A stretch of 64,000 bases of DNA from an uncultured Aliarcobacter sp. (GCA_963664305.2 CAXXLV010000001.1:864001-928000), one strand, 5' to 3'. Shown: positions 1 through 15,549, counted from the stretch's first letter. Numbers and translations are program-made. Notes: generated by a model from the letters alone, not told the origin.

Positions 1-399
1 AATGCTATTTCATTTGGTGGTGGAGTTGTATCTGCTGCAACAAATACTAGTGATATGCAAATTTCTTTAGTAGCACCAGCTGCAGTTGGTACTGTAAAAA
101 GAGTACCTGGAATATTTGTAGATTTTTCTAAAGGTGGTTTATCTTCAAATGCTGCATTTTTAGAATCACAAATAGCAAGTGATTTAGCTGCTGTAGCTTA
201 CATAGATAGAACAGCAACAAGTGCTACAGCAAAAAGTGGAGTAATTAGTTCAACAGGTTCATCTATTGAACAACGAACACCTGCTATTGGTACTGTAGAT
301 GCTGATGGGAAGCCTGTTGATCCTACAGCTGCTCAATTAGGTGATGGAATGTTCATTCTTTATTTTAAAGATTTTGGTTCAGACGAAGTAGTTCAATAA
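1..399 (+). CDS. 5'-truncated Ala/Gly/Ser/Thr-rich protein, probable major pilin of the downstream type IV filament operon (C-terminal part only)
   Basis: Frame 1 is open from base 1 (NAISFGGGVVSAATNTSDMQ...), so ATG 55 is internal. Codons favour GCT/GGT/ACT as in the housekeeping genes here. Followed by a strong hairpin and then pilus assembly genes. The diagnostic prepilin N-terminus lies outside the window. Confidence 0.5.
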   Translation, partial: NAISFGGGVVSAATNTSDMQISLVAPAAVGTVKRVPGIFVDFSKGGLSSNAAFLESQIASDLAAVAYIDRTATSATAKSGVISSTGSSIEQRTPAIGTVDADGKPVDPTAAQLGDGMFILYFKDFGSDEVVQ

Positions 400-430
400 T
401 ATTTAGGCTTTTGCCTAAATATTATATTTT
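396..430 (+). terminator. Hairpin terminator/attenuator after the putative pilin gene
   Basis: Perfect 13-bp stem ATAATATTTAGGC-TTTT-GCCTAAATATTAT (396-425) followed by ATTTT. Confidence 0.75.
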
Positions 431-501
431 AAAAAACAAAACCTAAGTGCTAAGTATTAGCATTTACTTTTTGTTTTACTCTTAAAAAAGGTTTTTTTCT
501 A

Positions 502-1236
502 ATGTTGGGAAATATATGGCTATCATCGGCACTTATTGTTACAGCTATATTTTCTGCAGGTGCTATGTATAAATCTTATAGTGATATTCAAGAAGCAAAA
601 CAAATCCAAGAACATTATGAAATAATCTCTGAAATCAAAACTTTATTAGCCAAGCAATACAATAAAAATCCAGATGAAATAACACGTGATGATATTATTG
701 CCAATTTACCAAAAGGTGAAAACTGGGGAAAAGTTCTTCTTCTTGATAGAAATAAAGATAGCAATCTTTCTAATAAAGAGTTAGTAAATGAAACTGGAAA
801 TTTTGAGATAAGTGAAGATGAAAAGTTAAAATTACTTGCACTAAAAGCAAAACTAAAAGATGTTATTGATGTAACTTCAATTGAACCAGTTGATAAAAAA
901 TATACTTTTGAAGTTGGGAAAGTTGAGAAAAATAGAGTATTAAATGATATTGATATTGAAGAAAATTTAACAAAAGCAATACATTTTTTGGCAGATGAAA
1001 TCTTATATAATACAAGTTCAAATAAAGAAACTACATTGAATGCAATTTTAGATGAGTTTACCCCTTATGATAAGCTTTATTTTGATTTTTTAAATAATGG
1101 CGAAACTTCGATTAGCGAACAAACGTTAAAAGATAGGAAAAAAGCTTATTTTAAATCAAGAATAAAAGATAGACTTTATAAAAATGAGAATGCACTTGAA
1201 ACAAGACTTTATAAAGAGTTGAAAGATATATTATGA
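502..1236 (+). CDS. Membrane-anchored protein, possible minor pilin-like subunit
   Basis: N-terminal MLG-NIWLSSALIVTAIFSAGAM hydrophobic segment followed by an amphipathic helix; first gene after the putative pilin; no canonical Glu5. Confidence 0.4.
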   Translation: MLGNIWLSSALIVTAIFSAGAMYKSYSDIQEAKQIQEHYEIISEIKTLLAKQYNKNPDEITRDDIIANLPKGENWGKVLLLDRNKDSNLSNKELVNETGNFEISEDEKLKLLALKAKLKDVIDVTSIEPVDKKYTFEVGKVEKNRVLNDIDIEENLTKAIHFLADEILYNTSSNKETTLNAILDEFTPYDKLYFDFLNNGETSISEQTLKDRKKAYFKSRIKDRLYKNENALETRLYKELKDIL

Positions 1237-1958
1237 AGAAAATTTTATTTATTTTATTTTTATTGATTAACTCATCTTTTGCTTTAGATTTAACTAATTT
1301 TGAAGATAGACAAAGTGCTCTTCAAGATGTAAAAACAATCATCTTATATGAAGAATCAATAGCAAAAGCTTATGAAGAGTATATTTTAACAAACTACAAG
1401 TTTCCAACTCTTGCTGAAATAAAAACATTGATAGGGAATTTAACTTTAGTAAATAATGTAAATTCAAATATAGCTTTGAGTAGTACATTGACAAAAATCT
1501 CTTATGGTTTAAATAGTGATTTAAAAGCTGATACTTCAATAAAAGCTTTATATGAAAGTAATACATATAGAAAAAGAACTTATGTTAGGAATGATGAGGT
1601 AAACTTTATTTTAGAAGATGAATTTGCGAAACATTTATATGATTTAATCAAACAAAATGGTGGCGCAATTCAAGATTGTCCAACGACAGCATTTACAACA
1701 GCTGTAAATTGTAAAGAGAATAATCATATTTATATTAAATTGACAAAAAAACTTGATGGTTTAGAAGTTGTTCCAAATACATATTTGATAGCATATCATG
1801 TTGATAATTTTAAAAATGGACCGATAATTATTACAAACGATACTTCAAAACATATTACTGAAAATGCTTTCGATTCTATACCAAAAGGTGCTTTGTTATA
1901 TGACATTGACGGTGTAAAATATGTAAAAACTTTAGATGGAATAGAGATTTTAAAATGA
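1233..1958 (+). CDS. Exported protein with pilin-like N-terminal module (paralog 1)
   Basis: Sec signal MKKILFILFLLINSSFA; shared motif EESIAKAYEEYILTNYKFPT; ATGA overlap with upstream gene. Confidence 0.55.
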   Translation: MKKILFILFLLINSSFALDLTNFEDRQSALQDVKTIILYEESIAKAYEEYILTNYKFPTLAEIKTLIGNLTLVNNVNSNIALSSTLTKISYGLNSDLKADTSIKALYESNTYRKRTYVRNDEVNFILEDEFAKHLYDLIKQNGGAIQDCPTTAFTTAVNCKENNHIYIKLTKKLDGLEVVPNTYLIAYHVDNFKNGPIIITNDTSKHITENAFDSIPKGALLYDIDGVKYVKTLDGIEILK

Positions 1959-2719
1959 TTAGACAATTTATACTTTTGATTACAATTTTAATATCATCTT
2001 TTTCACAAGATACATTAACAGCTCAAAAACAAAATACTTTATATATTCAAGATTTGATTCAAATAGAAGAGAATATCGCAAAAAATTTTGAAAAATATAT
2101 TTTAACTGAATATAAAATTCCAACAATAACAGATTTAATAGATGATAACTATTTAGGAAGTAATTTTTCTGTACTAAATAGAATGGGTGAAAATATTGAT
2201 TTTAAAGATAGTTCAAAATTACAACTAAAATATGCAATTACAAAAGATGAATATAGAAAAACAAGAGATGAAAATCTAGGAATTGAAAATTTTTTAGTTC
2301 AACTTTACAATAGAGATTTATACAGAGATTATACGACAGTTTTTAGTGATGATACTGATGTAAATAATATGTACGTTGAGTTTGAGCTAAAATCCGATGA
2401 AGCAAAAAATATATTTGATTTATTAAAAAATGGAAATAGTATTGCAAAAACTTGTGTTGCATCACTAAAAAGTACTTATTGCAACAATAATGATAGAACA
2501 ATTAGATGGTATAACGCTAGTTCAAATTGGATTGAATATGATAAAAAAGATTTTAATAAAGGGAATATAACAGTTAGTAGTGAAAGTATTTTAACTTCAG
2601 AAACAACAAAACTTTCAAATTTAAAAGTTGGTAGTTATATCTATATAAAAGATAAAACAAAAAATGTAAAAATGATAGATGATTCTTCTGGAAATTTACA
2701 AATTCTAAAGGTGGATTAA
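1955..2719 (+). CDS. Exported protein with pilin-like N-terminal module (paralog 2)
   Basis: Sec signal MIRQFILLITILISSFS; motif EENIAKNFEKYILTEYKIPT; Cys pair; ATGA overlap. Confidence 0.55.
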   Translation: MIRQFILLITILISSFSQDTLTAQKQNTLYIQDLIQIEENIAKNFEKYILTEYKIPTITDLIDDNYLGSNFSVLNRMGENIDFKDSSKLQLKYAITKDEYRKTRDENLGIENFLVQLYNRDLYRDYTTVFSDDTDVNNMYVEFELKSDEAKNIFDLLKNGNSIAKTCVASLKSTYCNNNDRTIRWYNASSNWIEYDKKDFNKGNITVSSESILTSETTKLSNLKVGSYIYIKDKTKNVKMIDDSSGNLQILKVD

Positions 2720-5641
2720 ATCAAAACTCTAATTTTTATAATCATATTTTTTAATTTTGTTTTTGCGTCAAGTGAAAATATATCATTGATGAATAATGTA
2801 AAATCTCTTATTCAAAAAGAGGAATATATATCATTAGCATTAAATAAATATATTTTACAAACAGGAAAAATTCCTAAAAAAAGTGATGATACAATAGATT
2901 GGGATAAATTAGAAGTTAAAGACTATTTAGGAACAAATTTTAATAAAACAAATCCTCTTACTTCAAAAGATATTGTAATAACTTTTGATGATAAAAATAG
3001 TGCATTTATTAAAGGTGCTATCGAAAAAGAGACAGATTATAATGAAGAGTATAATTATCTATATAATTTTTATACGAATAAAGTATTTAGAGTAAATACA
3101 ATTCCTCCAAAAAATATTTCTAAAACAGAGTTGGTAAAAGGTTCCCTTGTTTTATATAACTCTTTACAAAAAGAGATAGTTTCTGTTTTAACAAAAGGAG
3201 ATAATTCTATATTTTTACCTTCTCAAAGTTGTAATTCAGGACAATATTTTTATGAACTAAAAAATGAAAAATTAATCTACAAATATTGTAAAACAGCAAG
3301 CAATTCTATAGAAGTTTATCAAAAGGCACCAGTTTATTTAGATAATTTAGATGATTTAGCATATATAAAAGTGGGAATAGGTGAAAAAGCTTATGTAAAA
3401 GATGGAAATTCTTGGTATGAGTATTATTATGAAGGAAATAATACATGGATACCATCAGGAACAGGAAGAACAACAGGGCAAGTAAATGATGAAATAAGTA
3501 TAGGAGATAGAATTTTATCTTATATTCCTGATGCAAAAGATTTGCTTTTAAGACGTGATGGTGGCTGTATGTTAGCAAATGGTGATATTTTTTGTTGGGG
3601 AAATAATCAATATAAAAAAGCAGGAATACAAAGTTATGGGCAATTAGATAAAACTTTATCTCCTGATTATGTTAATACACCTGTAATGTTAAAAGTTCAA
3701 ATAGAAGATATTAATACAGGAACAGAAACATTAGATTTAATAAATAAAAAATGGTACAACAATCCATATAGAATAAAATTTGAAAAAATGGCAATGAATA
3801 GTAGTAATGTTTGTGCTATTTCACCTTTATTTAATTATTTTGATAAAGTTCAAAAAAAGTTTGGTGGAGATTTATATTGTAATGGACAAATTTCACAAAT
3901 GTATTTTGAAAATATTAGTTCAACTGTAAGTGAAACTTCTATTTTAAGTAAAAATAAATTTTTTGGATGGGGAAAAAGTGATCAGACTGATGATAGTCCT
4001 AAAACTATCAAAATATCTGATGATGGAGGACCAGTTATAGAAGATGGTTCAGGTAATGAATTAATGATTACAAGAGATGAAATCTATTTAACAGATATTG
4101 TAATGGTTGAAGATACAATTGCTGTTTTATCTGATGAAGGAAAAATTTATACAATAGGAAGAAACTATAAAGGTGGATTAGGTATAGGAAGTAGTGATAA
4201 ATTTATTGTTCAGTTAACTCCAGAAGAAGTAAAAAGTAATGGAGCAATATTTAAAAAAATATTTGCATTAAGAGATACTGCGATGTTTGGTGCAATAGAT
4301 AGTAATAACTATTTTTATATTTGGGGTGAAAGACCTAATGGTACAGTTTATTATGAGCCAACACTTGTTAGTAGTTCTTTAAAATTTAATCCAGATGGAA
4401 TTTTTACAAATAGTAAAGATTTTCTTTTAAAGGGAGTTGATAATAACTTTTATAGAACAGTTGGAAATAAAGAACTAAGTCTTGTAAGTGAAATTCCAAG
4501 TAGTGCAGTTAGTGCATCAATCTATGATAATAATTCTCAAGAATTATATGTATATGTAAATGATAGTATGCAGTTATTTGGAAGTAGTGATTTTTTAACT
4601 TGTAAAACAACTACAGCAACAAACTGTACAACAACAGATAATAAAATTTTTACAACTGCTTTGGATGAGTTAAATACTTTTTCAAATAATTTTAATGGAA
4701 AAGATTATGCAAATTTTTCAAATATTTCAATTTATCAATTAGACACTGTTAAATATGAAATTTTTGAAGATTTTGAAGATGGAAAATCAACAGGATGGGA
4801 TGGAAGTTCAGTAAATAAAAGTTCTGGAAAAATTAGGGTAACTTCTGTAAGTGATGATGGTACAGATGAAATACCTGTAACAAAATTTTTAGGTAGTTTT
4901 AATATTGAAGAGGTTGAATATGGAAGTCAACCTCCAATAAATTATACAAATAAACCTTCTTATATAGAAAAAACATTCTCTATAGGGACAAGTTATGCAA
5001 ACAATGAAGTTGAATTGGAATTTGACTTTTATGAGATTGATACTTGGGATTTTGAAAGATTTACTGTAACTTTAAATGATGTAGTTTTTGTTGAAGATGA
5101 TTTTATACATGATAACCATCCTTATCTTTCTGATATAAATGATACTGGAGAATCATTACAAAAAGTTGGTTCTTCAGGAAGTTACAATAACGATAATGAT
5201 GAAAAATATCATTATAAAATAAAAACAAAATTAGATTCTTCTGGAAAATTAAAAGTTAGATTTAGTACAAGAGGTTTAAAAAGTACGGATTATGGTTATA
5301 ATGGTTGGTCTTTCGCTCAATCAAGAGGTGATGAATCATGGGGAATAGATAATGTACATGTGAAAGTAAAAGAGACAAGTAAAACTTTTGTATGTGCAAT
5401 GACAGGAATAGGTAGCCAGTCTCAAATGTATTGTTGGGGAAATGTTGGACGAAGTATACCAATTTTAAGCACATCTTTATATGATGTAAGTAAAATAAAT
5501 ACTATAAATAAGTTATTTATTTCTCAAGAAAGTGATAAGACTTCTCAAATGGCTTTTGATAATTTTAATAACAATGGGAATTTATTTCTAAAATATCCAA
5601 CTTATATCGGGGGATTCGATTATGCATTTTATTTTAAATAA
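2720..5641 (+). CDS. Large exported adhesin-like protein: pilin-like module, RCC1-like beta-propeller, inserted lectin-like domain (paralog 3); probable ATC start at 2720
   Basis: Repeats GDIFCWGNN, GDLYCNG, GKIYTIGRNYKGGLGIG, YFYIWGE, QMYCWGN; motif EEYISLALNKYILQTGKIP; an in-frame signal peptide is encoded at 2720-2767, upstream of the ORF-track start 2786. Confidence 0.65.
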   Translation: MKTLIFIIIFFNFVFASSENISLMNNVKSLIQKEEYISLALNKYILQTGKIPKKSDDTIDWDKLEVKDYLGTNFNKTNPLTSKDIVITFDDKNSAFIKGAIEKETDYNEEYNYLYNFYTNKVFRVNTIPPKNISKTELVKGSLVLYNSLQKEIVSVLTKGDNSIFLPSQSCNSGQYFYELKNEKLIYKYCKTASNSIEVYQKAPVYLDNLDDLAYIKVGIGEKAYVKDGNSWYEYYYEGNNTWIPSGTGRTTGQVNDEISIGDRILSYIPDAKDLLLRRDGGCMLANGDIFCWGNNQYKKAGIQSYGQLDKTLSPDYVNTPVMLKVQIEDINTGTETLDLINKKWYNNPYRIKFEKMAMNSSNVCAISPLFNYFDKVQKKFGGDLYCNGQISQMYFENISSTVSETSILSKNKFFGWGKSDQTDDSPKTIKISDDGGPVIEDGSGNELMITRDEIYLTDIVMVEDTIAVLSDEGKIYTIGRNYKGGLGIGSSDKFIVQLTPEEVKSNGAIFKKIFALRDTAMFGAIDSNNYFYIWGERPNGTVYYEPTLVSSSLKFNPDGIFTNSKDFLLKGVDNNFYRTVGNKELSLVSEIPSSAVSASIYDNNSQELYVYVNDSMQLFGSSDFLTCKTTTATNCTTTDNKIFTTALDELNTFSNNFNGKDYANFSNISIYQLDTVKYEIFEDFEDGKSTGWDGSSVNKSSGKIRVTSVSDDGTDEIPVTKFLGSFNIEEVEYGSQPPINYTNKPSYIEKTFSIGTSYANNEVELEFDFYEIDTWDFERFTVTLNDVVFVEDDFIHDNHPYLSDINDTGESLQKVGSSGSYNNDNDEKYHYKIKTKLDSSGKLKVRFSTRGLKSTDYGYNGWSFAQSRGDESWGIDNVHVKVKETSKTFVCAMTGIGSQSQMYCWGNVGRSIPILSTSLYDVSKINTINKLFISQESDKTSQMAFDNFNNNGNLFLKYPTYIGGFDYAFYFK

Positions 5642-5649
5642 GGAATTAT

Positions 5650-7311
5650 ATGTTGAAAGATTTTAAAAATTTATGGTTTTTAGGAACGCTTTTTTTACTA
5701 CTAGGTGGTTGTAGCTCAAAAGATTATCATGAAGAGATGCTTGAGAATACAAAATCTTCTTTAGATAAAGAAAATTACAATGCGATAAAAAAATCATATT
5801 CCGATTCCTTAGTTGATGAAAAAGTAAAAGATAAAGAGTTCATAAGTATTTTAGAAGATAAATCTTTAAGTGATATTTTAAAAGAGATGGAGATTTTAGA
5901 TGGTAATTTTTACTATTTAAAAAGTAGTGATGTTTTAATACCAAAAAGTAGAATTAAAATACATAATATTACAGAGTTAAATCAGTATTTAAATGCTGTT
6001 TTAGATAAAGAATTATTTATTAAGAAAAATGGTTCAATTTATCTTGTAAAACTTTTAAGTACTAGTGAAACAAAAAAACAATCAATAGAACATATTCCTT
6101 TTAAATTAGATGGTCAAATATCAGTTGAAGAGTTAATCAAACTAATTACAACAGAATCAGGCTATGAAGTAAATATTGGAAATTATATAGATAATAAAGA
6201 TGATTTCCAAAATAGTATTATTAGTATTAGTTCAAAAGATTTAAAAGATGCATTAAATTCTTTAGGTCATGCAAAAGATGTATATGTTGACATAGATTAT
6301 GATAAAGAAGTTATAAATATAACAAGATATAAAGATACAGTTATAGAATTAAATATTCCTTTATTAGATATCAAATCTACAAGTCAAACAACTAATCAAG
6401 AATCAACTGGAGAGAGCAAAGTAGAAAACAATTCTCAAATTGTTTTATATGATGAACTTGACAAAATGTTAAAAAATATAATCTCAACAGATAAAATTTC
6501 AACTTATCATATAGATAAAGCTAGTGGATTGATATTTCTAAAATCAACAAAATCAATAGAAAATGCAGTAAGAACTGTAGCAAAAGCTTATGAATCAACA
6601 TTCTCAAAAGAAGCAGTTATTGAGTTTGAAAGAATTGAAATACTTTTAAATAAAAATAGACAATATGGAATTGGAAGTATTTCAGATGATAGACAAACAA
6701 ATGCAGGAACAGGAGTTATAAGAGGAATTGGAGCTGATGGAGCACTTAATTTTACAAGTGATAATGTAACTAGACTTTTAAAAGTTGCAGCAACTGCAAA
6801 CAATGAAATTGGAAAAATATTAAACTACAGTAAAAATATGATTGTTCTAAAAAACAATATTCCAACTGTTCAATCAATCACTGAAAATACAGATTATGTT
6901 GAAAAAATTGAAACTACAATTGATGCAGATACAAATACAAGAACTTCTGATGTTACAGTAAATACTTTGAAAGAAGGAACTTCAATAACAGCAATGGCAA
7001 AAATATCAAGAGATAAAATTTTCTTGAATATCTTACCATCAATTAAAAAATTAATTGAGTTTGGAGAAGTAAGTATTGATGGAACAACTATTAAATTACC
7101 TCAGTACAATGACCAAAGTTATAACATTTCTAGAGAAGTAAGCTTAGGTGAAACTGCAATAGTTGGTTCAATTATTGTTCATGATGATACAAAAAATTAT
7201 CAAGGAGTTTTACCGGTGGAAGGATTTGCAATTGGTGGAACAGATTCAAAATCTTATGTAAGAAGAGAGATTGTTTACGTAGTTACTCTTAGAAATATTA
7301 AAGGCTTTTAA
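5650..7311 (+). CDS. Lipoprotein secretin (BfpB/PilN/TcpC/MshL-like outer membrane channel)
   Basis: Lipobox LLLGG-C at residue 21; 553 aa; C-terminal secretin-like region (LKNNIPTVQSITENTDYVEK, EGTSITAMAKI, IKLPQ, VSLGETAIVGS, RREIVYVVT); AGGA RBS. Confidence 0.8.
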   Translation: MLKDFKNLWFLGTLFLLLGGCSSKDYHEEMLENTKSSLDKENYNAIKKSYSDSLVDEKVKDKEFISILEDKSLSDILKEMEILDGNFYYLKSSDVLIPKSRIKIHNITELNQYLNAVLDKELFIKKNGSIYLVKLLSTSETKKQSIEHIPFKLDGQISVEELIKLITTESGYEVNIGNYIDNKDDFQNSIISISSKDLKDALNSLGHAKDVYVDIDYDKEVINITRYKDTVIELNIPLLDIKSTSQTTNQESTGESKVENNSQIVLYDELDKMLKNIISTDKISTYHIDKASGLIFLKSTKSIENAVRTVAKAYESTFSKEAVIEFERIEILLNKNRQYGIGSISDDRQTNAGTGVIRGIGADGALNFTSDNVTRLLKVAATANNEIGKILNYSKNMIVLKNNIPTVQSITENTDYVEKIETTIDADTNTRTSDVTVNTLKEGTSITAMAKISRDKIFLNILPSIKKLIEFGEVSIDGTTIKLPQYNDQSYNISREVSLGETAIVGSIIVHDDTKNYQGVLPVEGFAIGGTDSKSYVRREIVYVVTLRNIKGF

Positions 7312-7313
7312 TA

Positions 7314-8330
7314 ATGAGTATGTTTGCTGATCCATATGAACAATTTTTGCTTGATTATCTTGTTACAAAATTAGAAAATGGTTCTAATACAAGAAGAGCA
7401 TTATTGTTATATAGTGAACAAATTACAAGAGAAACAAATTTCAAAAAAAGATTAATGGCTGCCATTAAAGATATGGAAATAGGAAAACATAAACTTGAAG
7501 CTATTTTACATAAACATAAATTTTTGAATAGTTTTCAATTTAGTTTGGTTGTAAATAGTACAAATACCTTAGATGGATTAAAGCTTGTTTTATCTTTTAA
7601 AAAAGCAAATTCAAATCTGATGTTAAAGATGATAAATCCTATTTTTGTTCCTTTATCTATTATCATTGGTACTTTTTATGGTTTGATTTTATATCTTGAT
7701 ATGTTACAAAAAGATTTAGTTCAATTAAGAAAGTTAAATCCTGATGTGGAACAATTTTTAGGAATACCAAAATATTTTACTTATGATGTGGCTTACATAG
7801 GATTAGGAGTTTCTATATTTGTTACGGCATTTATATTTTTTGGATATTTGTATACTGAAAAGTATAAACCAGCATGGTTATATAAAGTATTTAAAACTCA
7901 AGCGTTTTCTGATGGAAGATTTATGTTTAGGATTTTAAATGGTATGTTAAGTGCTGGTATCTCTTTTCATAAAACTTCATTGATTTTATCAAAAGATTAT
8001 TTTAAAGAGGGGCTTCGACCATTTTTTAAAGAGTTGGCAGAGATGATAAATAAAAATAGAAAACTATTTATTATGTTTGAAAAATACAATTTTCCTGCAA
8101 TCATAACAGCCGATATAAAATTGTCAGAGTTAAGTAAAACAAGTTTTTCAGAAGTTACAAAAGCTTTATATCAAACATGTGACACAATGTATGAAAAAAA
8201 CATAAATTATATGGTTTTACAATGGAAGTTTATGTTTTGGATGATTGCAATGTTGGTTACTGTAATAATAGGTTCAGATGTTATTAACTTGGTAATTAGT
8301 ACTTTTACATTTAAAACTTTATATCAATAG
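7314..8330 (+). CDS. Type IV filament inner-membrane platform protein (PilC/GspF family)
   Basis: Three hydrophobic segments and two GspF-like cytoplasmic repeats (LVTKLENG; LNGMLSAGISF); lies between secretin and ATPase. Confidence 0.7.
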   Translation: MSMFADPYEQFLLDYLVTKLENGSNTRRALLLYSEQITRETNFKKRLMAAIKDMEIGKHKLEAILHKHKFLNSFQFSLVVNSTNTLDGLKLVLSFKKANSNLMLKMINPIFVPLSIIIGTFYGLILYLDMLQKDLVQLRKLNPDVEQFLGIPKYFTYDVAYIGLGVSIFVTAFIFFGYLYTEKYKPAWLYKVFKTQAFSDGRFMFRILNGMLSAGISFHKTSLILSKDYFKEGLRPFFKELAEMINKNRKLFIMFEKYNFPAIITADIKLSELSKTSFSEVTKALYQTCDTMYEKNINYMVLQWKFMFWMIAMLVTVIIGSDVINLVISTFTFKTLYQ

Positions 8331-8341
8331 AAGATGAAATT

Positions 8342-10033
8342 ATGATAAAGAAAATAGTAACAACTTTAAAGAATACTCCTAAATTTCCTTTTATGAAAAG
8401 TGAAAAAAAGAAGAAATCTCAGAAAAAAGTGAAAAAAGCAGAGTTTGATTTTAAAGATTTTTTTGAAAAACAAAAGAAGTCAATTTATGATTTTATAGGT
8501 AAAAGTGACGACCCAGATACTCATTTATCAAATATAATCGAAGATATGATTAAAGAGAAATTCCATTTAAAAGGTGGATATGGAGATTTAATCGCAAATG
8601 AAGAAAAATATGAACAATTTGTAAGAACTTTAGGTTATGAATATTATGCAACTTACAATGAATTATCAAAATATTATCAAGATACTTCATTTCAACTTGA
8701 TGAAAAAAAACTTGAATTTTGTACAACAATGTATATTATTACATTAGAAGATAAAAAGAATAAAAATAAAGTTTTAGGTATTAGAGATGTTGTAAATCTT
8801 GATTTTGAAATTTTAAGTAAATTCTATTTTACAAAAATAGTAGTTTTAGGTGAGGGCGTTTTATCTTCAGTTTTTGGGGAAGATAGAGAGATTATTTTTA
8901 GTTCAAATAGTGATACAGAAAATGATGAAGAGATAAATAAATATTTTGACAAAATGATGGGACAAGCTATTTTACTTGGAGCATCTGATATCCATATTCA
9001 AAAAACAAGTAGATATGCTTCTTTATGGTTTAGAATTGATGGTATAAAAGTTGATATGGGAACAATGCCAATTACTATTGCAAAAACATTAAAAAGAAGA
9101 CTTGTAACTATGGCTGACCAAGAGGATTCAGATTATGAATCAATTAATGGGGTTATAAATTATGAATATGGAAAGAAAAATATTAAATTCAGACTTGGTC
9201 TTATAAATTCAAAATTAAACTTTTCATTAGTTATGAGGATGATTGGTGGACGTGGAGTTGTTTCTCATAATTTAAGAGGGTTAAACTATCCACAAGAAAC
9301 AGTTGATATCCTTTCAAATTTAACAAAATATGCAAATGGAATGATATTAATTACCGGACAAGTTGGAAGTGGTAAAACACACTTGATGTATGCTTTATTA
9401 CAACAACTTGCAAAACAACAACAATATGTAATTACAATTGAAGATCCAGTTGAATATGTGGATGAATCTTTCTTCCAAATTGATTTATCTGAGTTTGCAA
9501 GTGCAAGTGAGGAGTTTAAGTATGGTTACCCAGAAGCCGTTGTTGATATCCTAAGACAAGATTCAAATATCATCTTAATTGGGGAAACAAGAGAACCACA
9601 AACGGCATCACAACTTGTAAATGCATCTAACTTAGGTCAGTTAGTTTTCTCAACAATGCACACAAACTCAGCCCCAGCAACTGTTTCAAGGATGACAAGT
9701 TCTCTTGGAATAAATGAAGGGGATATTATCGATAACTTAAGAGGTATTGTATCTCAAAGATTAGTTCGAAAATTATGTAAATTTTGTAAAGAACCTGATG
9801 GAGAAGGTGGATATAAAAAAGTTGGTTGTGATGAATGTAACCATACAGGGTTTAAAGATAGGGTACCAATCGCTGAGGTTGTAAGATTTAAACTTGGACA
9901 TGGTGGTGATTTTGAAAATCCAGCAGAATATATGACGGTTGAAAAAGCTTCAATGGCACAATACAAAGAAGGGTTAATAACAAAAGAAGATGCAATTGCA
10001 ATTATCAGAGGGGAAGAAGTATGGTACGATTAG
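8342..10033 (+). CDS. Type IV filament assembly ATPase (PilB/GspE family)
   Basis: GASDIHI, RIDG, Walker A GQVGSGKT, Asp box TIEDPVEY, Walker B LRQDSNIILIGETR, His box STMHTN, SQRLVRKLC with CxxC...CxxC zinc motif. Confidence 0.93.
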   Translation: MIKKIVTTLKNTPKFPFMKSEKKKKSQKKVKKAEFDFKDFFEKQKKSIYDFIGKSDDPDTHLSNIIEDMIKEKFHLKGGYGDLIANEEKYEQFVRTLGYEYYATYNELSKYYQDTSFQLDEKKLEFCTTMYIITLEDKKNKNKVLGIRDVVNLDFEILSKFYFTKIVVLGEGVLSSVFGEDREIIFSSNSDTENDEEINKYFDKMMGQAILLGASDIHIQKTSRYASLWFRIDGIKVDMGTMPITIAKTLKRRLVTMADQEDSDYESINGVINYEYGKKNIKFRLGLINSKLNFSLVMRMIGGRGVVSHNLRGLNYPQETVDILSNLTKYANGMILITGQVGSGKTHLMYALLQQLAKQQQYVITIEDPVEYVDESFFQIDLSEFASASEEFKYGYPEAVVDILRQDSNIILIGETREPQTASQLVNASNLGQLVFSTMHTNSAPATVSRMTSSLGINEGDIIDNLRGIVSQRLVRKLCKFCKEPDGEGGYKKVGCDECNHTGFKDRVPIAEVVRFKLGHGGDFENPAEYMTVEKASMAQYKEGLITKEDAIAIIRGEEVWYD

Positions 10034-10770
10034 TAATTACTGATTTTGCAACAAAAGAGGATAGTGAATTTTTCTATATAAATGATGAATTTGATGTTTC
10101 TCAAAATATGTTTACATATCATTCCTTTAAAAAATATAGTGTATATCTATCAAAATATACAAATGATGAAATTTATTCATTAAATTTATTATCAAAAAGA
10201 TATTTAGGAAGAAATCAATTTTTAATCCATATTGCTGATGGAGAGTATGTAATTTTATTTAATCATAAAACAGTATATTCTGCAAAAATAAATCAAAACT
10301 TTATTACAGATGACATGATTAAATCAATTTTGATTACAAAACATATAGCAATGCTTTCAAGTGGTGGAGCAATTGAAAATATTTATTATGTAATTAACTC
10401 AAAATATAAGTGTGCAATTGAGAATATTTTAAAACAAAATACAAAAAATGAGAAACAAGAAGTAGTAGCTAAATCTTTAGGAGAAATTGAAGAATTAGTT
10501 AAACCTTTAAAAGAGTTAGATACAGCAAAATCTCATACAACAAAACTAACTTATATGTCATTACTATTAGGGGTAAGTTGTTGGGTAATGTTTTCAGGAT
10601 TAAAAACATTTACTGATAAAGTTTTTTATACTGAACCTTTAGAAAATTTACATAGAGAGTTAAAAATTGAGACTCAACTAGCAAAACGTCAAGAAAAATT
10701 ATTGGGTGAAAGTCAAAATAAATATAAAGAATTAGTTGATTGTATAACTCCAACTAAGGTAGTGAAATGA
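10021..10770 (+). CDS. Probable pilus alignment protein (cytoplasmic domain, TM helix, coiled coil; GspL/BfpC-like topology)
   Basis: Single TM near C-terminus then a coiled coil; overlaps the ATPase stop; assignment by topology and context only. Confidence 0.45.
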   Translation: MVRLVITDFATKEDSEFFYINDEFDVSQNMFTYHSFKKYSVYLSKYTNDEIYSLNLLSKRYLGRNQFLIHIADGEYVILFNHKTVYSAKINQNFITDDMIKSILITKHIAMLSSGGAIENIYYVINSKYKCAIENILKQNTKNEKQEVVAKSLGEIEELVKPLKELDTAKSHTTKLTYMSLLLGVSCWVMFSGLKTFTDKVFYTEPLENLHRELKIETQLAKRQEKLLGESQNKYKELVDCITPTKVVK

Positions 10771-11258
10771 TTAGTATAAGCAATAAAGTAATAAAAAATG
10801 GAAGTAAATTAATTATTTCAACTTTAGTAATTTATTCAATAGTTTATGTTGGATTTAGAGCTTTAAACTATTATAAAACATATTATGAAAAAGAAAAACT
10901 TACAAATGAACTTCAAATAAAAAGAGATGAAACAATATCATTAAAAACTAGAGCTAATGAAGCAAAGAAAAAAATTGAAGATTTAGAAAAAAGTTATATC
11001 TCAAAAGAAGAAATTGAAACAAAAGTAAAAGATATCTTTTCAAGAATGTCTTTACTTGATTATCAATTAGATTTTGTAGATTCAAAAAAAATGTGTATAG
11101 ATAGATATATAATCATAACTAGAGTACATACTCAAAGTGAAAATGGACTAAAAGCAGCAGAAGGTATTTTATCATATCTAGGAGAAATTAAAAAAAGTGA
11201 TATGGATGAATCTTTATATTTTGTAAATTATATTTCAAAACCTAGGGAAATAAAATGA
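10767..11258 (+). CDS. Probable pilus alignment protein (PilN/PilO/GspM-like topology)
   Basis: N-terminal TM, coiled coil, small alpha/beta C-domain; ATGA coupling. Confidence 0.45.
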   Translation: MISISNKVIKNGSKLIISTLVIYSIVYVGFRALNYYKTYYEKEKLTNELQIKRDETISLKTRANEAKKKIEDLEKSYISKEEIETKVKDIFSRMSLLDYQLDFVDSKKMCIDRYIIITRVHTQSENGLKAAEGILSYLGEIKKSDMDESLYFVNYISKPREIK

Positions 11259-13456
11259 AAGTTTGTATGAAAGCTTTTTTCCTTTTTTTCCTTTCTATAA
11301 ATTATTTATTCGCAGATAATTATATAGATTCTTTAACTCTTACAAAAATAAAAAAACTTGTACAAAAAGAAGAAGAGATAGCTTTTGCATATAAAAAATA
11401 TCTTTTAGAAAAGGGAACAACTCCTACAACTATTGATACTTTAAAAGAGCAAAATTATTTACCAAAGGGATTTGATTTTATAAATCCTTTTGGTAAAGTA
11501 ATTACTTTAAAAAATGATGAATATGTAATAAATGGTTTTTCAACTATGGATAATGTTTTAAAATCAAATTTATATGATTACTATTATTCAAGTAAGTACA
11601 GAACTTATACTAAAGCTCCGTTAAGTACAAATGAAACTGATGTAGGAATTATTTTATCAACAAAAGAAAAATTCATTTTTAATAATAAAAGTAAAATTAC
11701 AACTACAAAAGCAGATGCAAAAGCAAAATATTATTTAGATTCAAATGGGGTTTTACATTGGTATGATGTAAATGGGAATTATAAATACTCTTTTGATAAA
11801 GATTTACTTCTTGATGAAAATGTAACGTTATTAAATGAAGATGGGACAGTAAATAGTACATATAAAGAGTTAGTAAAAGATGTGTCTTTTGCAGGAATGA
11901 CTGTTTTACATAAAAATACTACTTCAAGTACAGCTGATGAATATATTATGATTGGTTCATCAAGTGCAGTAAAAGTAAAACAAACAACAAGAGATATAGG
12001 AAAAACAGTTATTCAATTTACTAGACGTGCTGGTGGAATGATTGTAAATGGAGATATTTATACTTGGGGAAATATAGCTAATAGAATTGTAGGTATAGAT
12101 ATAGATAATAATAAATATACAAAAGAAAATGGTAGTTTAGGTTCATATTATCCAGTTATTACAGGATTAGTTAGAGCAAGAGCTAAAACATATGATACAA
12201 ATATAGACAATCAAAACTACTTTTCTTCACCCTTAAGACCAAAATTTGTTGATTTTTTTAGTACAGTTTTTCATAGTACTTGTGGAATTTCAATAAAAGG
12301 AGAATTATATTGTGGAGGACTTGCAAGTGCATATCAAAAAGGTTTTTTATATTCTAATGTAGATCCATCGAGTCCAAGTGTTGAAATGTTGTATAAAAGT
12401 AAAGATTTTGATGGTACAGTTAATAAAAAAGCAACTAAAATATTTGCGAATGATGGATTTTGGTTAATTTTTGGAAATACTGATACAGATAATAATGGAA
12501 ATTATAAAAATGGTAAAATTTATAGATGGGGTGGCACAAACTATGGATTTGGAGGAACAGGAAATAGAACTTATTCAACTACAAGAATATCAGAATTAGA
12601 TATAACAGATAATAATGTAAAAGTATTATTTAAAGACTTAACATATCTTCTTACTCTTGGACATAGGAAAATAGCAGCATTATCTAATCAAGGAGATATT
12701 TATATTTGGGGAGTAGATACATATAATTCAAATTCTTTTGATTGTACAATTAAATGGGAAAATATTAATTATGATTTATGTGTACCAACTAAAATTATAA
12801 TTTCGAATTCAACAATGAATTCTTCAATAAAATTTGAATCAATTCAAGGTGGATTAGACTCTTTTATTGCAAAAAGTGAAGATGGAATATATTATAAAAT
12901 TTCTCACCCAATTAATAAAAAAATACAAGTGATACCTATAGATAGTACAATAAAAAATTATGAAGAATATAAATTAGAAGATGATGTAGAACTTTTATCA
13001 GTTGATTTTTCTAAAAAAGTTTCAGAAATAGGAACAACAACTGCAAGTAATGGAATAGTTTGGATAAATAGTAAAAATGAATTAAAAGGTGATTATTATA
13101 CAGATGAAAATAAAAATGATCCAGTATTTAAAGATTCTATAAAAAAAATAAAATGGAAAAAAATAAAAGTTATACAAGATGATAATGGTATGTGTGGAAT
13201 TGATATAAATGATCAAATGTATTGTTGGGGAATGATGTCTTTTTATGGTCAAGATATGAGAGATACATTTATGTTACCAGTATTTAATACAAATTTATAT
13301 GATTCTAATAAGGATTTTTTAGTTGTTGAGGGAGGTAATTCAAATCTTACAAACATGACATCTGATGATTGGACAACTAGTGATTCAAAAAAACCATTTT
13401 TTATGAAGTATCCTACATATATAGGTGGATTTAATTATGAGTTTATATTTAAATAA
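11255..13456 (+). CDS. Large exported adhesin-like protein: pilin-like module plus RCC1-like beta-propeller (paralog 4)
   Basis: Signal MKAFFLFFLSINYLFA; motif EEEIAFAYKKYLLEKGTTPT; repeats GDIYTWGN, GELYCGG, GKIYRWGG, GDIYIWGV, DQMYCWGM; C-terminal KYPTYIGGFNYEFIFK. Confidence 0.65.
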   Translation: MKVCMKAFFLFFLSINYLFADNYIDSLTLTKIKKLVQKEEEIAFAYKKYLLEKGTTPTTIDTLKEQNYLPKGFDFINPFGKVITLKNDEYVINGFSTMDNVLKSNLYDYYYSSKYRTYTKAPLSTNETDVGIILSTKEKFIFNNKSKITTTKADAKAKYYLDSNGVLHWYDVNGNYKYSFDKDLLLDENVTLLNEDGTVNSTYKELVKDVSFAGMTVLHKNTTSSTADEYIMIGSSSAVKVKQTTRDIGKTVIQFTRRAGGMIVNGDIYTWGNIANRIVGIDIDNNKYTKENGSLGSYYPVITGLVRARAKTYDTNIDNQNYFSSPLRPKFVDFFSTVFHSTCGISIKGELYCGGLASAYQKGFLYSNVDPSSPSVEMLYKSKDFDGTVNKKATKIFANDGFWLIFGNTDTDNNGNYKNGKIYRWGGTNYGFGGTGNRTYSTTRISELDITDNNVKVLFKDLTYLLTLGHRKIAALSNQGDIYIWGVDTYNSNSFDCTIKWENINYDLCVPTKIIISNSTMNSSIKFESIQGGLDSFIAKSEDGIYYKISHPINKKIQVIPIDSTIKNYEEYKLEDDVELLSVDFSKKVSEIGTTTASNGIVWINSKNELKGDYYTDENKNDPVFKDSIKKIKWKKIKVIQDDNGMCGIDINDQMYCWGMMSFYGQDMRDTFMLPVFNTNLYDSNKDFLVVEGGNSNLTNMTSDDWTTSDSKKPFFMKYPTYIGGFNYEFIFK

Positions 13457-13472
13457 AATTAAAAGGGAAAAA

Positions 13473-14444
13473 ATGAAGAGAATAAGTATGATTTTATTGG
13501 GGTTTCTTACTGCAATTAATCTTTATGCAGAAGATCAAAATATACAAAATATGGATAAATTAGATGCTTTAGATCAGCAATCTAAAGAGTTCTTTAAAGC
13601 AATTACTGGATTAGAGAAAGATTATTTAGAGGAACAAGTAAATGCAATAAAAAATAAAAAAGTAGAGCAAATTTCAAATCCAAATATGCCAAATCAACCA
13701 CAAATGATTATAAAAGAAGAACCAAAATTATCACAAGAAGATTATGAAAAAAATGTATTTACTCATCAAAATGAAATGGCAAGATTAACTACAGATTTTA
13801 CTAGAACAAAAAAATTAAAAGATTTAAAAATAAAAAGTATGTACTCTTTTAATGGGAAAGATTATGTAGTACTAGAATTAAATGATGAAACAGCAGTAAA
13901 TAAACAAAATGGTTTAACAAAAACTGAGTTAAGTGCAAATATAGAAGGAAGATATGTTGAGGGTGATAATATCTTAGGACATAAAATCATTGATATTAAT
14001 ACAAGAACAAAAAGTGTTGAACTATATAAAAAACTTGATGAAGAGTATGGTTATACAATCTATTTAAGCAATTATGGTATTTCTGTTAGTGATTTAAAAA
14101 AGATAGAACAAAAAGAAGAAGCTAAAAAAGAAGATAAAAATAGTGTAAAAAAAGCATTTGAACAAGTTAAAACTGAACAAAAAAATGTAAGTGAAAAAAA
14201 CTCTTCTTGTTATATAGTTAATAAACAAAATTTAAATGTAAGAAATAGTACAAATTCAGACGCTAGAATTTTAAGAATTTTAAAACTTGATGATAAATTC
14301 ACTATAAAAGAAAAAAACAATGATTGGCTTCAAATAGATACTATTTATAAAAAAGTTTCAGGTGATGTAATGAATGTATCAAATGAAAATAACTGGGTTC
14401 AATTAGTAGAAGGAAATGTAAGTCTAAGTGATAATTGTAAATAG
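13473..14444 (+). CDS. Periplasmic PilP-like protein with C-terminal SH3b-like domain
   Basis: ATG 13473 follows AAGGG RBS and begins signal MKRISMILLGFLTAINLYA; central beta-rich domain; C-terminal LNVRNSTNSDARILRILK...WLQI...WV SH3b pattern. Confidence 0.5.
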   Translation: MKRISMILLGFLTAINLYAEDQNIQNMDKLDALDQQSKEFFKAITGLEKDYLEEQVNAIKNKKVEQISNPNMPNQPQMIIKEEPKLSQEDYEKNVFTHQNEMARLTTDFTRTKKLKDLKIKSMYSFNGKDYVVLELNDETAVNKQNGLTKTELSANIEGRYVEGDNILGHKIIDINTRTKSVELYKKLDEEYGYTIYLSNYGISVSDLKKIEQKEEAKKEDKNSVKKAFEQVKTEQKNVSEKNSSCYIVNKQNLNVRNSTNSDARILRILKLDDKFTIKEKNNDWLQIDTIYKKVSGDVMNVSNENNWVQLVEGNVSLSDNCK

Positions 14445-14453
14445 GAAAGTAAA

Positions 14454-15524
14454 TTGGAAAATCTAAGAGATTATAAATCAGAAATTTTTGTAAATATTGA
14501 AAGAATTTCAAATGAAGTTCTCATATTAAAAAGTAAATATAATAAATTTTTTAATATAGAAGAGATATTTTCTAGTGAAAATGGTGGAAAAACAAGATTA
14601 AATAGACAAATATTTAATGAAAATCATGAGAATATCCAATCTTCAATTTTAGAGATAAGTTTATCTTTAGATGAAATTACAGGTCTAATAAAAGAGCAAA
14701 TGAGAATTGTTTTAAATAATAACAATCAATTTGAAAAAGCAGAATTAAATACATTGATTTTTGATGATAAAAATTTTTTAGAAATATTATCTTTAGATTT
14801 AGACACTCATGGCATAAAAGGTGAAGCTAAAAATAGATGTTTAAATGAGATAAAAGATTTAATCAATTTAAAAAATAAGGTGTTTAATCTACGATATTTT
14901 ATAGATATGTTTGATACTTCAATTTTTGATAAATATATAAATAGATTAGGAGTTGAAGATTTAATCAATAGTACAATTATTTTTGAAACTATAGACTCTT
15001 ACGCTTTACAGTTTGAAGAGTTGAAAAAATTTGCAGAACAATTAGCTACATTAAGTGTTGAAAATATAAAAGTTACAAATCTGAATAGTTTTAACACTTT
15101 ATTAGAATTACATAAAAGAAGAGTTGATAACTATATGTATGCAGGTATAAAATATAAAATATTTATTGAATACAATAGTGAAATAAATATAGTTAAGCCT
15201 GTTAATTTAAATATGGCATATTTAGAAAATATTTTATCTGCATTAATAGAACAATCATCAATGGATGTTGTAAAAAAAGAGTTAAAAAAAGGAAAAATAC
15301 AAAAGCAAATAGATGTAAATATTTCGCTAAATAAAAATATATTTCAAATGAGTGTAAAAAACAATGGTTTTGAAGTTAGAAATATTCACAATTTATTTTT
15401 ATCAGATATTGATAATAAAAATATTTTAGAAGCAAAAAATTTAGCTAGTTTTATAAATGCAAAACTTGATATTTCAAGTATTGACAATGAAGGTATGCAG
15501 TATACAGTAACTCTTAAAGTTTAA
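14454..15524 (+). CDS. Cytoplasmic protein with degenerate HATPase_c-like C-terminal domain
   Basis: TTG start after AGGA; C-terminus LENILSALIEQS...MSVKNNG...AKLDISS...GMQYTVTL resembles a histidine kinase ATPase fold lacking N and G2 boxes. Confidence 0.45.
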   Translation: MENLRDYKSEIFVNIERISNEVLILKSKYNKFFNIEEIFSSENGGKTRLNRQIFNENHENIQSSILEISLSLDEITGLIKEQMRIVLNNNNQFEKAELNTLIFDDKNFLEILSLDLDTHGIKGEAKNRCLNEIKDLINLKNKVFNLRYFIDMFDTSIFDKYINRLGVEDLINSTIIFETIDSYALQFEELKKFAEQLATLSVENIKVTNLNSFNTLLELHKRRVDNYMYAGIKYKIFIEYNSEINIVKPVNLNMAYLENILSALIEQSSMDVVKKELKKGKIQKQIDVNISLNKNIFQMSVKNNGFEVRNIHNLFLSDIDNKNILEAKNLASFINAKLDISSIDNEGMQYTVTLKV

Positions 15525-15549
15525 AACTAAAGGTAAAAAACCTTTAGTT
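15525..15549. terminator. Bidirectional terminator at the end of the pilus operon and purT
   Basis: AACTAAAGGT-AAAAA-ACCTTTAGTT 10-bp stem between convergent genes. Confidence 0.7.

Follow-up and report, generated by a model that had tools for sequence, protein, structure and literature searches.

A predicted type IV filament system with leaderless pilin-like subunits in Arcobacteraceae

Can a type IV filament be built from subunits that carry no prepilin leader? This question is raised by a gene cluster at one end of a 64,000-nucleotide (nt) stretch of DNA from an uncultured Aliarcobacter sp. (GCA_963664305.2 CAXXLV010000001.1:864001-928000), the whole of which we call the window (G000:C1:864001-928000 in our numbering, in a genome of 2.78 Mb and two contigs). 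In the part of PMC10191384 drawn on here, prepilins are defined by the class III signal, a hydrophilic leader that invariably ends in Gly or Ala before a hydrophobic helix. According to the same part of that source, the signal must be processed by a prepilin peptidase before assembly, and signal and dedicated peptidase are together regarded as defining and ancestral in every type IV filament (PMC10191384). The cluster described here encodes an assembly ATPase, a platform, a secretin, and pilin-like proteins that start directly at the hydrophobic helix. We consider it likely that this chromosomal operon encodes a self-contained type IV filament machine that belongs to an undescribed subtype, so far confined to Arcobacteraceae. 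An initial annotation of the window had already proposed a divergent type IV filament system outside the known layouts, and this proposal held: the core parts were verified, no equivalog cut-off was reached, and the ATPase clade fell outside the references used.

How far does the cluster extend, and what does it contain? On the + strand of window positions 1-15524, we found 13 open reading frames (ORFs) of at least 100 amino acids (aa), the first truncated by the window edge. The initial annotation had likewise reported 13 co-oriented genes with a 5' end outside the window. Retrieval of the upstream DNA showed that g02 is cut by the edge, with its start codon 300 bp upstream, and that g01 lies wholly beyond it, so that the cluster comprises 14 co-oriented genes and starts about 930 bp 5' of the window. 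ATGA overlaps, also noticed at the outset, are present at four junctions (1233, 1955, 10767, and 11255). One further junction is a 13-nt overlap, and the remaining gaps are at most 16 nt, except for 102 nt between g02 and g03. For g13 we used an ATG start that agrees with the orthologues; the ORF listing begins instead at GTG 13425. The features are as follows, in window positions unless a contig is given.

C1:863071-863619, + strand: g01, pilin-like, 182 aa, entirely upstream of the window
G000:C1:863701-864399 (3' part at window 1-399), + strand: g02, probable major pilin, 232 aa, model closest to TcpA/CofA
502-1236, + strand: g03, 244 aa, leaderless N-terminal membrane anchor, then a helix of the g04/g05 type
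1233-1958, + strand: g04, 241 aa, Sec signal peptide, conserved helix module, two invariant Cys
1955-2719, + strand: g05, 254 aa, Sec signal peptide, conserved helix module, paralogue of g04
2720-5641, + strand: g06, large RCC1-like repeat protein, probable ATC start at 2720
5650-7311, + strand: g07, lipoprotein secretin of the BfpB/PilN/MshL kind, 553 aa (profile matches, lipobox)
7314-8330, + strand: g08, predicted inner-membrane platform, divergent GspF/PilC (fold match)
8342-10033, + strand: g09, assembly ATPase of the GspE/PilB family (Pfam T2SSE)
10021-10770, + strand: g10, 249 aa, cytoplasmic domain, one membrane helix, short coiled tail
10767-11258, + strand: g11, 163 aa, N-terminal membrane helix, then a coiled coil
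11255-13456, + strand: g12, second RCC1-like protein, 733 aa, signal peptide and shared N-terminal module
13473-14444, + strand: g13, signal peptide, low-complexity linker, weak C-terminal SH3_3 match
14454-15524, + strand: g14, 356 aa, cytoplasmic, no detectable family
15525-15534 and 15540-15549: perfect 10-bp inverted repeat with a 5-nt loop, between the g14 stop and the convergent purT stop

Do these genes encode a complete machine? The ATPase g09, which the initial annotation had called a clear member of the PilB/GspE family, matched Pfam T2SSE with an E value of 8.2e-66 (222.6 bits; cut-off 24.9). It stayed below the NCBIfam equivalog cut-offs for TfpB (197.9 against 850), GspE (TIGR02533, 196.9 against 630.25), and PilB (TIGR02538, 192.9 against 675.65). 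Among solved relatives in the PDB, it scored 159 bits with GspE/EpsE, 139 with PilB, 118 with PilF, 93 with PilT, and 69.7 with BfpD, and it is 24.6% identical to R64-type PilQ. The motifs that we take to be Walker A and CxxC...CxxC are readable in its sequence. No T2SSE_N, the N-terminal domain of MshE, appeared among the best 25 of 28 families at E values up to 0.1. We also placed g09 in an ATPase tree of 18 rows, which has few references and long branches and does not include the ATPases of the mannose-sensitive hemagglutinin (MSHA) pilus, the toxin-coregulated pilus (TCP), or Com. The Arcobacter ATPases from leaderless clusters form a clade supported at 97/97 that includes the most divergent leaderless member, L026; this clade groups weakly (81/69) with the ATPase of L045, a related cluster described below. 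It lies outside the group of E. coli GspE, HofB, and the genome's own GspE-like gene (98/95), and outside the group of BfpD and PilQ (90/88). The tree indicates only that this predicted clade does not nest within the few references used.

The platform was harder to recognize. The query g08 itself had no Pfam or NCBIfam match, and its profile found PilC (2whn) only, at an E value of 0.052; we found 104 members of its family, of which several contain PF00482 or are labelled by NCBI as "type II secretion system F family." Profile alignment with hhalign gave little, with probabilities of 1.4 against the genome's own canonical GspF, 5.8 against R64-type PilR, and 61.9 over 67 columns against BfpE, and the identity was therefore settled by fold search. 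An AlphaFold2 (AF2) model built on 42 sequences is all-helical, with a predicted local distance difference test (pLDDT) score of 84.8. It matched the PilC chain of the M. xanthus machine (3jc8_Ca, Foldseek E value 3.7e-4) and the cytoplasmic domains of EpsF, OutF, TcpE, and PilC (Foldseek probability 1.00); against the EpsF domain, the template modeling (TM) score was 0.75 and the root-mean-square deviation 2.2 Å. By its modelled fold, g08 is a divergent GspF/PilC platform, as first proposed.

The third part, g07, was missed by the Pfam Secretin model PF00263, and its NCBIfam matches were weak: MshL TIGR02519 at 7.6e-12 (44.8 bits; cut-off 250.2) and PilN at 4.1e-5. A profile of 17 sequences matched the solved BfpB secretin at 4.7e-13 over residues 242-505, and hhalign against R64-type PilN gave a probability of 87.5 over 383 columns. 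The lipobox reads L-G-G-C, and Cys21 is invariant in all 17 orthologues; the 553-aa lipobox secretin of the initial annotation is borne out. The cluster encodes a complete ATPase-platform-secretin machine.

What would this machine polymerize? In g01 and g02, the initial Met is followed immediately by about 20 hydrophobic residues (g02 begins Met-Pro-Gln-Leu-Ile-Ala...), with no leader, no Gly/Ala at position -1, and no Glu5. The N-terminal anchor of g03 also lacks a leader and looks uncleaved. The initial annotation had suggested retrieving the upstream gene start and looking for a class III signal; we looked in g01, g02, and g03 and found none, as all three proteins start at the hydrophobic helix, which makes the finding stronger than first seen. 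There was no match to TIGR02532 or N_methyl at E values up to 10, and g03 matched no family in searches with Pfam, NCBIfam, and the prepilin-signal models. The start of g02 is ATG-CCN after a purine-rich ribosome-binding site in 16 of 16 loci. In all 16, an in-frame stop lies at most 25 codons upstream, and therefore no hidden g02 leader is possible. A profile search across 1.84 billion representatives returned 40 relatives of g02, none of which has a leader: in 34, profile position 1 is protein residue 1, and the other six are C-terminal fragments. The predicted subunits do not fit the definition of prepilins by the class III signal.

Several features nonetheless recall pilins. The first 45 residues of g02 are almost invariant and the remainder is highly variable, with a mean pairwise identity over 61 sequences of 93% for residues 1-22, 85% for residues 23-48, and 48% for the head. 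Near its C-terminus, g01 has two invariant Cys, a common trait of pilins. The AF2 model of g02, built on the same 61 sequences, has a pLDDT of 89.7, with one helix over residues 2-54, an alpha/beta head, and a dip to 76 at residues 21-30. With Foldseek, CofA, C. difficile PilA1, and CofB ranked at the top with weak scores (best E value 0.088). In a comparison with 48,161 chains that is independent of Foldseek, the closest was TcpA (160 residues, model 2-225 on chain 1-199) with a Z-score of 7.3, which is in the range that the tool itself calls middling, followed by CofA (7.2) and C. difficile PilA1 (5.9). Type IV pilins and pseudopilins account for 28 of the 50 matches listed. Model residue 2-3 aligns to mature residue 1 of TcpA and CofA, and given the alignment of model 2-225 on TcpA chain 1-199, g02 would therefore begin where mature type IVb pilins begin. 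Profile alignment of g02 with R64-type PilS gave an hhalign probability of 1.1. The model shows g02 with the "lollipop" fold of a type IV pilin of the type IVb kind, and g03 is a candidate minor pilin-like subunit.

The same N-terminus might be read differently, as an unusual Sec signal that is cleaved (in g02, after Phe-Gly-Gly), in which case g01 and g02 would not be filament subunits and the true subunit would be another protein or would be encoded elsewhere. Such a reading would agree with the missing class III signal and Glu5, with the lack of a positive N-region to fix topology, with the small-residue motif that follows the hydrophobic stretch, and with the dip in model confidence at residues 21-30. 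It is at odds with the conservation of this segment: residues 1-22 of g02 are 93% identical, whereas in g04 and g05 of the same operon no part of the protein is less conserved than the true Sec signal peptide, at 31-35% identity. The continuous helix over residues 2-54, its register with mature TcpA and CofA, the lack of another pilin candidate in the cluster, and the retention of exactly g01 and g02 beside secretin, platform, and ATPase in minimal clusters (below) also argue for g01 and g02 as the subunits, and we regard a cleaved Sec signal as improbable.

Could a peptidase or a retraction motor be supplied from elsewhere in the genome? Among the cluster genes, the ORF listing and Pfam scan gave no PilT and no prepilin peptidase, in line with the initial annotation of the visible part. 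The genome has only three genes of the T2SSE family, with open frames of 472, 572, and 534 aa. None of the three reads as PilT-like; the two other than g09 adjoin GspF or sit in a Tad cluster. This Tad-type pilus cluster, at G000:C1:473764-483128, encodes a short A24 peptidase, a CpaE-like protein, TadA, TadB, TadC, and an RcpA-type secretin. The pair at G000:C2:50500-53100 is a canonical GspE and GspF (T2SSE 3.3e-109, T2SSF 8.8e-31), which presumably resembles the Cts competence genes of Campylobacter.

What are the accessory proteins? The initial annotation counted four paralogous Sec-exported pilin-like proteins. Of this set, g04 and g05 are indeed paralogues (25.6% identity, E value 8e-12), and their module recurs in g06 and g12; g03 is instead membrane-anchored, and the first ORF of the window is the predicted pilin g02. 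Each of g04, g05, g06, and g12 has a typical Sec signal peptide followed by the same conserved module, a helix with abundant Glu, Ile, Ala, and Tyr that ends in a Pro-Thr turn. If canonical start codons alone are allowed, the longest ORF for g06 has 951 aa and starts at TTG 2786. A signal peptide lies in frame directly after the TAA stop of g05 (window 2717-2790); it begins with ATC and is kept in five genomes, and other species have ATG at this position. Judging from the reading frame, g06 probably starts at ATC 2720, which supplies its signal peptide, either by a non-canonical start or by coupling of termination and reinitiation.

Two RCC1 propellers had also been proposed. The assignment stands for g06, which is above the Pfam cut-offs for RCC1 (25.9 against 21.7 bits) and RCC1_2 (25.6 against 22) and matched the RCC1-like domain of HERC2 at 2.8e-4; for g12 there was a sub-threshold match to an RCC1-like domain only (WD40_RLD, 3.9e-8, 33.4 against 150 bits). 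Blade-type motifs number six in g06 and five in g12, the last one at the extreme C-terminus, and the two proteins share a C-terminal motif with 35% identity over 93 aa. As for g13, described initially as an SH3-bearing PilP-like protein, its SH3_3 match is sub-threshold (1.4e-4, 22.4 against 27 bits) and the likeness to PilP reflects position only and was unsupported; in minimal clusters, g13 is a short form without the SH3 part. From topology and position, g10 is a candidate assembly protein of the GspL/BfpC/PilM-N type and g11 one of the GspM/PilO type, and the same grounds suggest that g13 belongs with them in an assembly subcomplex.

Three further identities were tried and rejected. Embedding neighbours (Atlas) suggested g05 as PilV/Shufflon_N (score 0.88), for which hhalign (probability 0.2), Pfam on 24 members, and a PDB profile search gave no support. 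The same held for g10 as PilO (Atlas PAP_PilO, 0.81), with no support from hhalign against R64-type PilO or BfpC or from the PDB profile. Finally, g14, which is conserved in full clusters and missing from minimal ones, had been annotated as a pseudo-kinase. This was a resemblance by eye only and was dropped: 13 orthologues showed no kinase or GHKL family at E values up to 5, and profile search found no PDB relative.

How widespread is the cluster, and which parts of it vary? Of 184 Arcobacteraceae genomes, 42 have the secretin. They span 11 of the 22 genera, and within the same genus it occurs in 21 of 43 genomes. The platform profile found the cluster in 12 of 401 sampled genomes of the phylum, and outside the family only distant sister systems. 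All 14 genes occur together in 12 of the 16 loci that we fetched. Two genomes have a minimal cluster of g01, g02, secretin, platform, ATPase, g10, g11, and a short g13, a set that we take as the core of the system. In public records, the cluster genes are labelled "hypothetical protein" or "membrane protein," except for some platform orthologues, which are listed as type II secretion system F family or GspF-domain proteins. In a search of the literature on Arcobacter pili and secretins and on leaderless type IV pilins, with supplementary files outside its scope, we found no description of the system. In one species of the genus, at G015:C1:755286-757618 (L029/L041), the platform gene is broken into two parts separated by about 1.3 kb, which points to an insertion and a decaying cluster.

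Compared with the nearest species, g03, g07, g08, and g09 are 96-99% identical, whereas g01 is 61% and g02 51% identical. Clustering at 90% identity divides the g02 family into 490 groups, and single species have many alleles. A tblastn search with every cluster protein across the complete genome gave no further copies of g01 or g02, and so no silent cassettes for antigenic variation. The variability of the predicted subunits fits a surface-exposed protein under diversifying selection or allele exchange.

This variability bears on a further reading, in which the cluster is mainly a secretion device akin to type II systems, with a short periplasmic fibre of g02 and g01 that pushes g04, g05, g06, and g12 through the secretin and forms no long pilus. 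The motor is closest to GspE/EpsE (159 bits, against 139 for PilB), the genome has no retraction ATPase, and four operon proteins combine a Sec signal with a shared module that could be an export signal. A precedent exists in type IVb pili, which export TcpF and CofJ through an N-terminal signal, according to the part of PMC10120004 used here. Subunits that are hypervariable between close species beside a machine conserved at 96-99% argue instead for surface exposure and not for a periplasmic pseudopilus. The large head of g02 is like that of a type IVb pilin, g07 is of the type IVb/MSHA lipoprotein kind and not a GspD, and no GspC, GspL, GspM, or pseudopilin families were detected with Pfam and NCBIfam. 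We therefore think a device devoted mainly to secretion unlikely, with somewhat more in its favour than the cleaved-signal reading.

A DNA-uptake (competence) pilus is a very remote prospect. Type IV filaments often take up DNA, and the family is related to naturally transformable Campylobacterota. Against this, the genome has the separate and far more canonical GspE and GspF pair described above, competence pili are not equipped with two giant propeller proteins, and the cluster is limited to 42 of the 184 family genomes.

Is the cluster expressed? Contigs covering g01 and g02 were found in two metatranscriptome runs and in two runs labelled RNA-Seq. In a compost metatranscriptome, a contig of 682 nt matches L002 (the retrieved locus, in which 2740-10628 is G000:C1:854740-862628) at 11703-12384, which coincides almost exactly with the g02 ORF, with 16 differences. 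Covering contigs are also present in a wastewater metatranscriptome, and several contigs from RNA libraries track the conserved 5' part of g02 and then diverge. The 3' end of g03 and g04 had no cover, from which nothing follows for their expression.

A motif of four G-runs in about 14 nt lies at L002 ~11655-11670, some 35-45 nt upstream of the g02 start. It is conserved in several relatives just 3' of a TATAAT-like box, in a genome of 27% G+C; a loose form of the pattern occurs 306 times in the genome on both strands. It might be an element of the 5' untranslated region or a G-quadruplex-like signal, and g02 may have a promoter of its own.

Where did such a system come from? Distant sister systems occur in Campylobacterota, and they are likewise undescribed, their public records being mostly unnamed or "hypothetical." L027, from another genus of Arcobacteraceae, shares 24% identity with the Arcobacter cluster in the secretin, 25% in the platform, and 30% in the ATPase; sister-system secretins in general are 24-25% identical to g07. 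Unlike g01 and g02, the two pilins of L027 have ordinary hydrophilic leaders ending in Gly, followed by a hydrophobic helix with Glu5, and they match TIGR02532. The same architecture of leader, helix, and Glu5 is found in L044, the counterpart of a locus on the Caminibacter pacificus plasmid NZ_CP040940.1; in L044, the pilin leader ends in Ala. Proteins with a Sec signal and a helix, of the same kind as in the Arcobacter cluster, are found in L027 and L045. Two of the sister systems are on a plasmid or beside conjugation-type genes, in contrast to the chromosomal Arcobacter cluster: the NZ_CP040940.1 locus adjoins a VirB4-like ATPase and a lytic transglycosylase, and L045 (G309:C10) adjoins VirB8/9/10-like genes, a transglycosylase, and ssb (identified by eye). 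Such neighbours hint at an origin of the lineage in mobile elements of Campylobacterota, where it would have served as a mating pilus.

The Arcobacter cluster itself could then be a domesticated mating or aggregation pilus of mobile-element origin, similar to the R64 thin pilus and serving cell-to-cell contact rather than attachment to surfaces or hosts. The company kept by the plasmid system and by L045 would suit such an origin, as would the alignment of g07 with R64-type PilN and the protein-language-model neighbours of g05 (PilV, 0.88) and g10 (PilO, 0.81). The neighbours found no support in hhalign, g09 does not group with PilQ or BfpD, the ORF listing and Pfam scan show no conjugation genes in the cluster, and the locus is chromosomal, flanked by tRNA-Arg and purT, with an adjacent integrated island that ends before g01. 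We hold a mating pilus to be about as doubtful as a cleaved Sec signal. Neither this reading nor that of a secretion device is exclusive with the self-contained filament machine that we prefer.

How might such a filament machine work? In our proposal, g01, g02, and g03 would insert with the N-terminus in and the C-terminus out and would need no prepilin peptidase; at most the initiator Met would be removed, leaving the invariant Pro2 of g02 as the N-terminus. ATPase and platform would polymerize these subunits into a surface fibre that leaves through the secretin, with g10, g11, and g13 forming an assembly subcomplex that spans the envelope. The products of g04, g05, g06, and g12 would be picked up in the periplasm by their common N-terminal helix module and then displayed on the fibre or released from it, like TcpF and CofJ of type IVb pili; by this analogy, they probably ride on the fibre or are exported by it. 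These four Sec-exported proteins could give the pilus its binding specificity, in adhesion or aggregation. Since the genome has no PilT, the fibre would be non-retractile or would retract without a dedicated motor. The function that we infer is adhesion, biofilm formation, or aggregation. A more specific form of the proposal is a new pilus subtype that has lost both the class III signal and the peptidase step, in which pilins are translated "mature" and polymerized by a GspE/GspF-type motor, and RCC1 propellers dock through their helix; we give it an even chance. In that form, Pro2 would be a natural secondary amine in place of N-methyl-Phe.

Several points weigh against our proposal. The fibre, its subunits, their N-terminus, and the function are all inferred. 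The ATPase tree has the narrow reference set given above, and both structural comparisons of g02 (Z-score 7.3, E value 0.088) are modest. A cut of g02 near Phe-Gly-Gly may be compatible with the sequence alone. No family was detectable for g10, g11, g13, and g14 with Pfam and NCBIfam, or by PDB profile for g10 and g14. Outside the cluster, the genome encodes two A24 peptidases, the one of the Tad cluster and another in the C1:553012 region, and A24 is found in 181 of 184 family genomes, with or without the cluster; because it is nearly universal in the family, independence from a peptidase is not shown by absence. Finally, the contigs from RNA libraries are a weak hint of expression only, since contigs cannot prove transcription and DNA may be present.

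The surroundings of the cluster are chromosomal, with tRNA-Arg on one side and purT on the other, and exact-sequence look-ups match its proteins to Arcobacter records, their close relatives being from A. ellisii, A. defluvii, and A. venerupis. Downstream of g14, the convergent gene reads by eye as purT. The initial annotation had placed a bidirectional terminator here. An inverted repeat is indeed present between the convergent stops, at 15525-15549; it has just two G-C pairs and so forms a weak hairpin, and the terminator scan reported 0 sites and did not report this repeat. It is possibly a weak bidirectional terminator. A promoter scan did no better than shuffled sequence (114 sites against a mean of 115.4).

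Upstream of the window, an element of 7.8 kb sits at tRNA-Arg(TCG), at L002 2740-10628 (G000:C1:854740-862628), bounded by a 19-bp direct repeat of the 3' end of the tRNA. Its genes encode a tyrosine integrase, an HTH_17 excisionase-like protein, FtsK/SpoIIIE, a rolling-circle Rep of the Phage_GPA type, and a TIR-domain protein of 821 aa, the last perhaps a defence gene carried by this small integrative element. The 19-bp repeat closes the element some 440 bp upstream of g01, and the pilus cluster therefore lies outside it.

It is a long-standing question why pilins require a leader, N-methylation, and Glu5. If our reading is true, leader cleavage and Glu5 are not obligatory for the assembly of a type IV filament. 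A system that keeps motor, platform, secretin, and pilin fold without leader and Glu5 would be a natural test of what the leader is for. With a sister system that uses ordinary prepilins in the same family, leader function, the topology of leaderless subunits, and fibre priming could be compared directly. The cluster also adds a candidate surface organelle, with hypervariable subunits and large propeller proteins, to the Arcobacteraceae, a group that includes animal- and human-associated species.

How does the cluster compare with known systems? Type IVb pili, such as the bundle-forming pilus (BFP) of enteropathogenic E. coli, TCP of V. cholerae, colonization factor antigen III (CFA/III) of enterotoxigenic E. 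coli, and the R64 thin pilus, likewise have all genes in one operon. They also share with the cluster a lipoprotein secretin (g07 matches BfpB at 4.7e-13 and PilN at a probability of 87.5), a large pilin (the modelled fold of g02 is closest to TcpA and CofA), and the lack of a PilMNOP or PilT set. Operon-encoded Sec-exported proteins with a common N-terminal segment are a further likeness, to judge from TcpF and CofJ in the part of PMC10120004 used here. The cluster differs from type IVb pili in its subunits and motor. Type IVb pilins have long leaders and a dedicated peptidase (BfpP sits in the bfp operon), whereas the cluster has neither; it also lacks a lytic transglycosylase, a retraction ATPase, and class III minor pilins. 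Its ATPase scores 69.7 bits with BfpD against 159 with GspE and falls outside the BfpD/PilQ group in the tree.

With MSHA, the cluster shares the best NCBIfam match of g07, the MshL model (7.6e-12), and an ATPase that belongs to the GspE/PilB/MshE-like branch and not to that of type IVb pili. MSHA operons also hold large accessory proteins. The cluster differs in that g07 reaches 44.8 bits against the MshL cut-off of 250.2, g09 shows no T2SSE_N within the family matches given above, and a class III signal is missing from the pilins; analyses that included no search aimed at MshM or MshN showed no protein resembling either. Type II secretion systems likewise combine an ATPase, a platform, and a secretin, have in GspE/EpsE the nearest solved relatives of g09, and recall the Sec-exported proteins encoded alongside. 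The cluster differs from them in its GspE equivalog score (196.9 against 630.25) and in a secretin, g07, that PF00263 does not detect. No GspD, GspC, GspL, GspM, or GspG-K pseudopilin families were matched in Pfam or NCBIfam, and the predicted fibre subunit g02 is large and hypervariable.

From type IVa pili, the cluster is set apart by the PilB equivalog score (192.9 against 675.65), by the absence of matches to PilM, PilN, PilO, and PilP in Pfam and NCBIfam, and by the absence of PilT. PilY1 is a large Sec-exported non-pilin protein with a beta-propeller, encoded next to pilin-like genes. The PilY1/PilC tip adhesins of type IVa pili thus resemble g06 and g12 in being large, Sec-exported, and propeller-bearing; they differ in that g06 and g12 have blades of the RCC1 type and no match to the PilY1/Neisseria_PilC family in Pfam. 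No predicted protein of the cluster reached an NCBIfam equivalog cut-off of type IVa pili, type II secretion, MSHA, type IVb PilN, or Com, and the cluster falls outside every named subtype tested. It stands closest to the type IVb pili in its secretin and modelled pilin fold, and closest to GspE/PilB in its motor.

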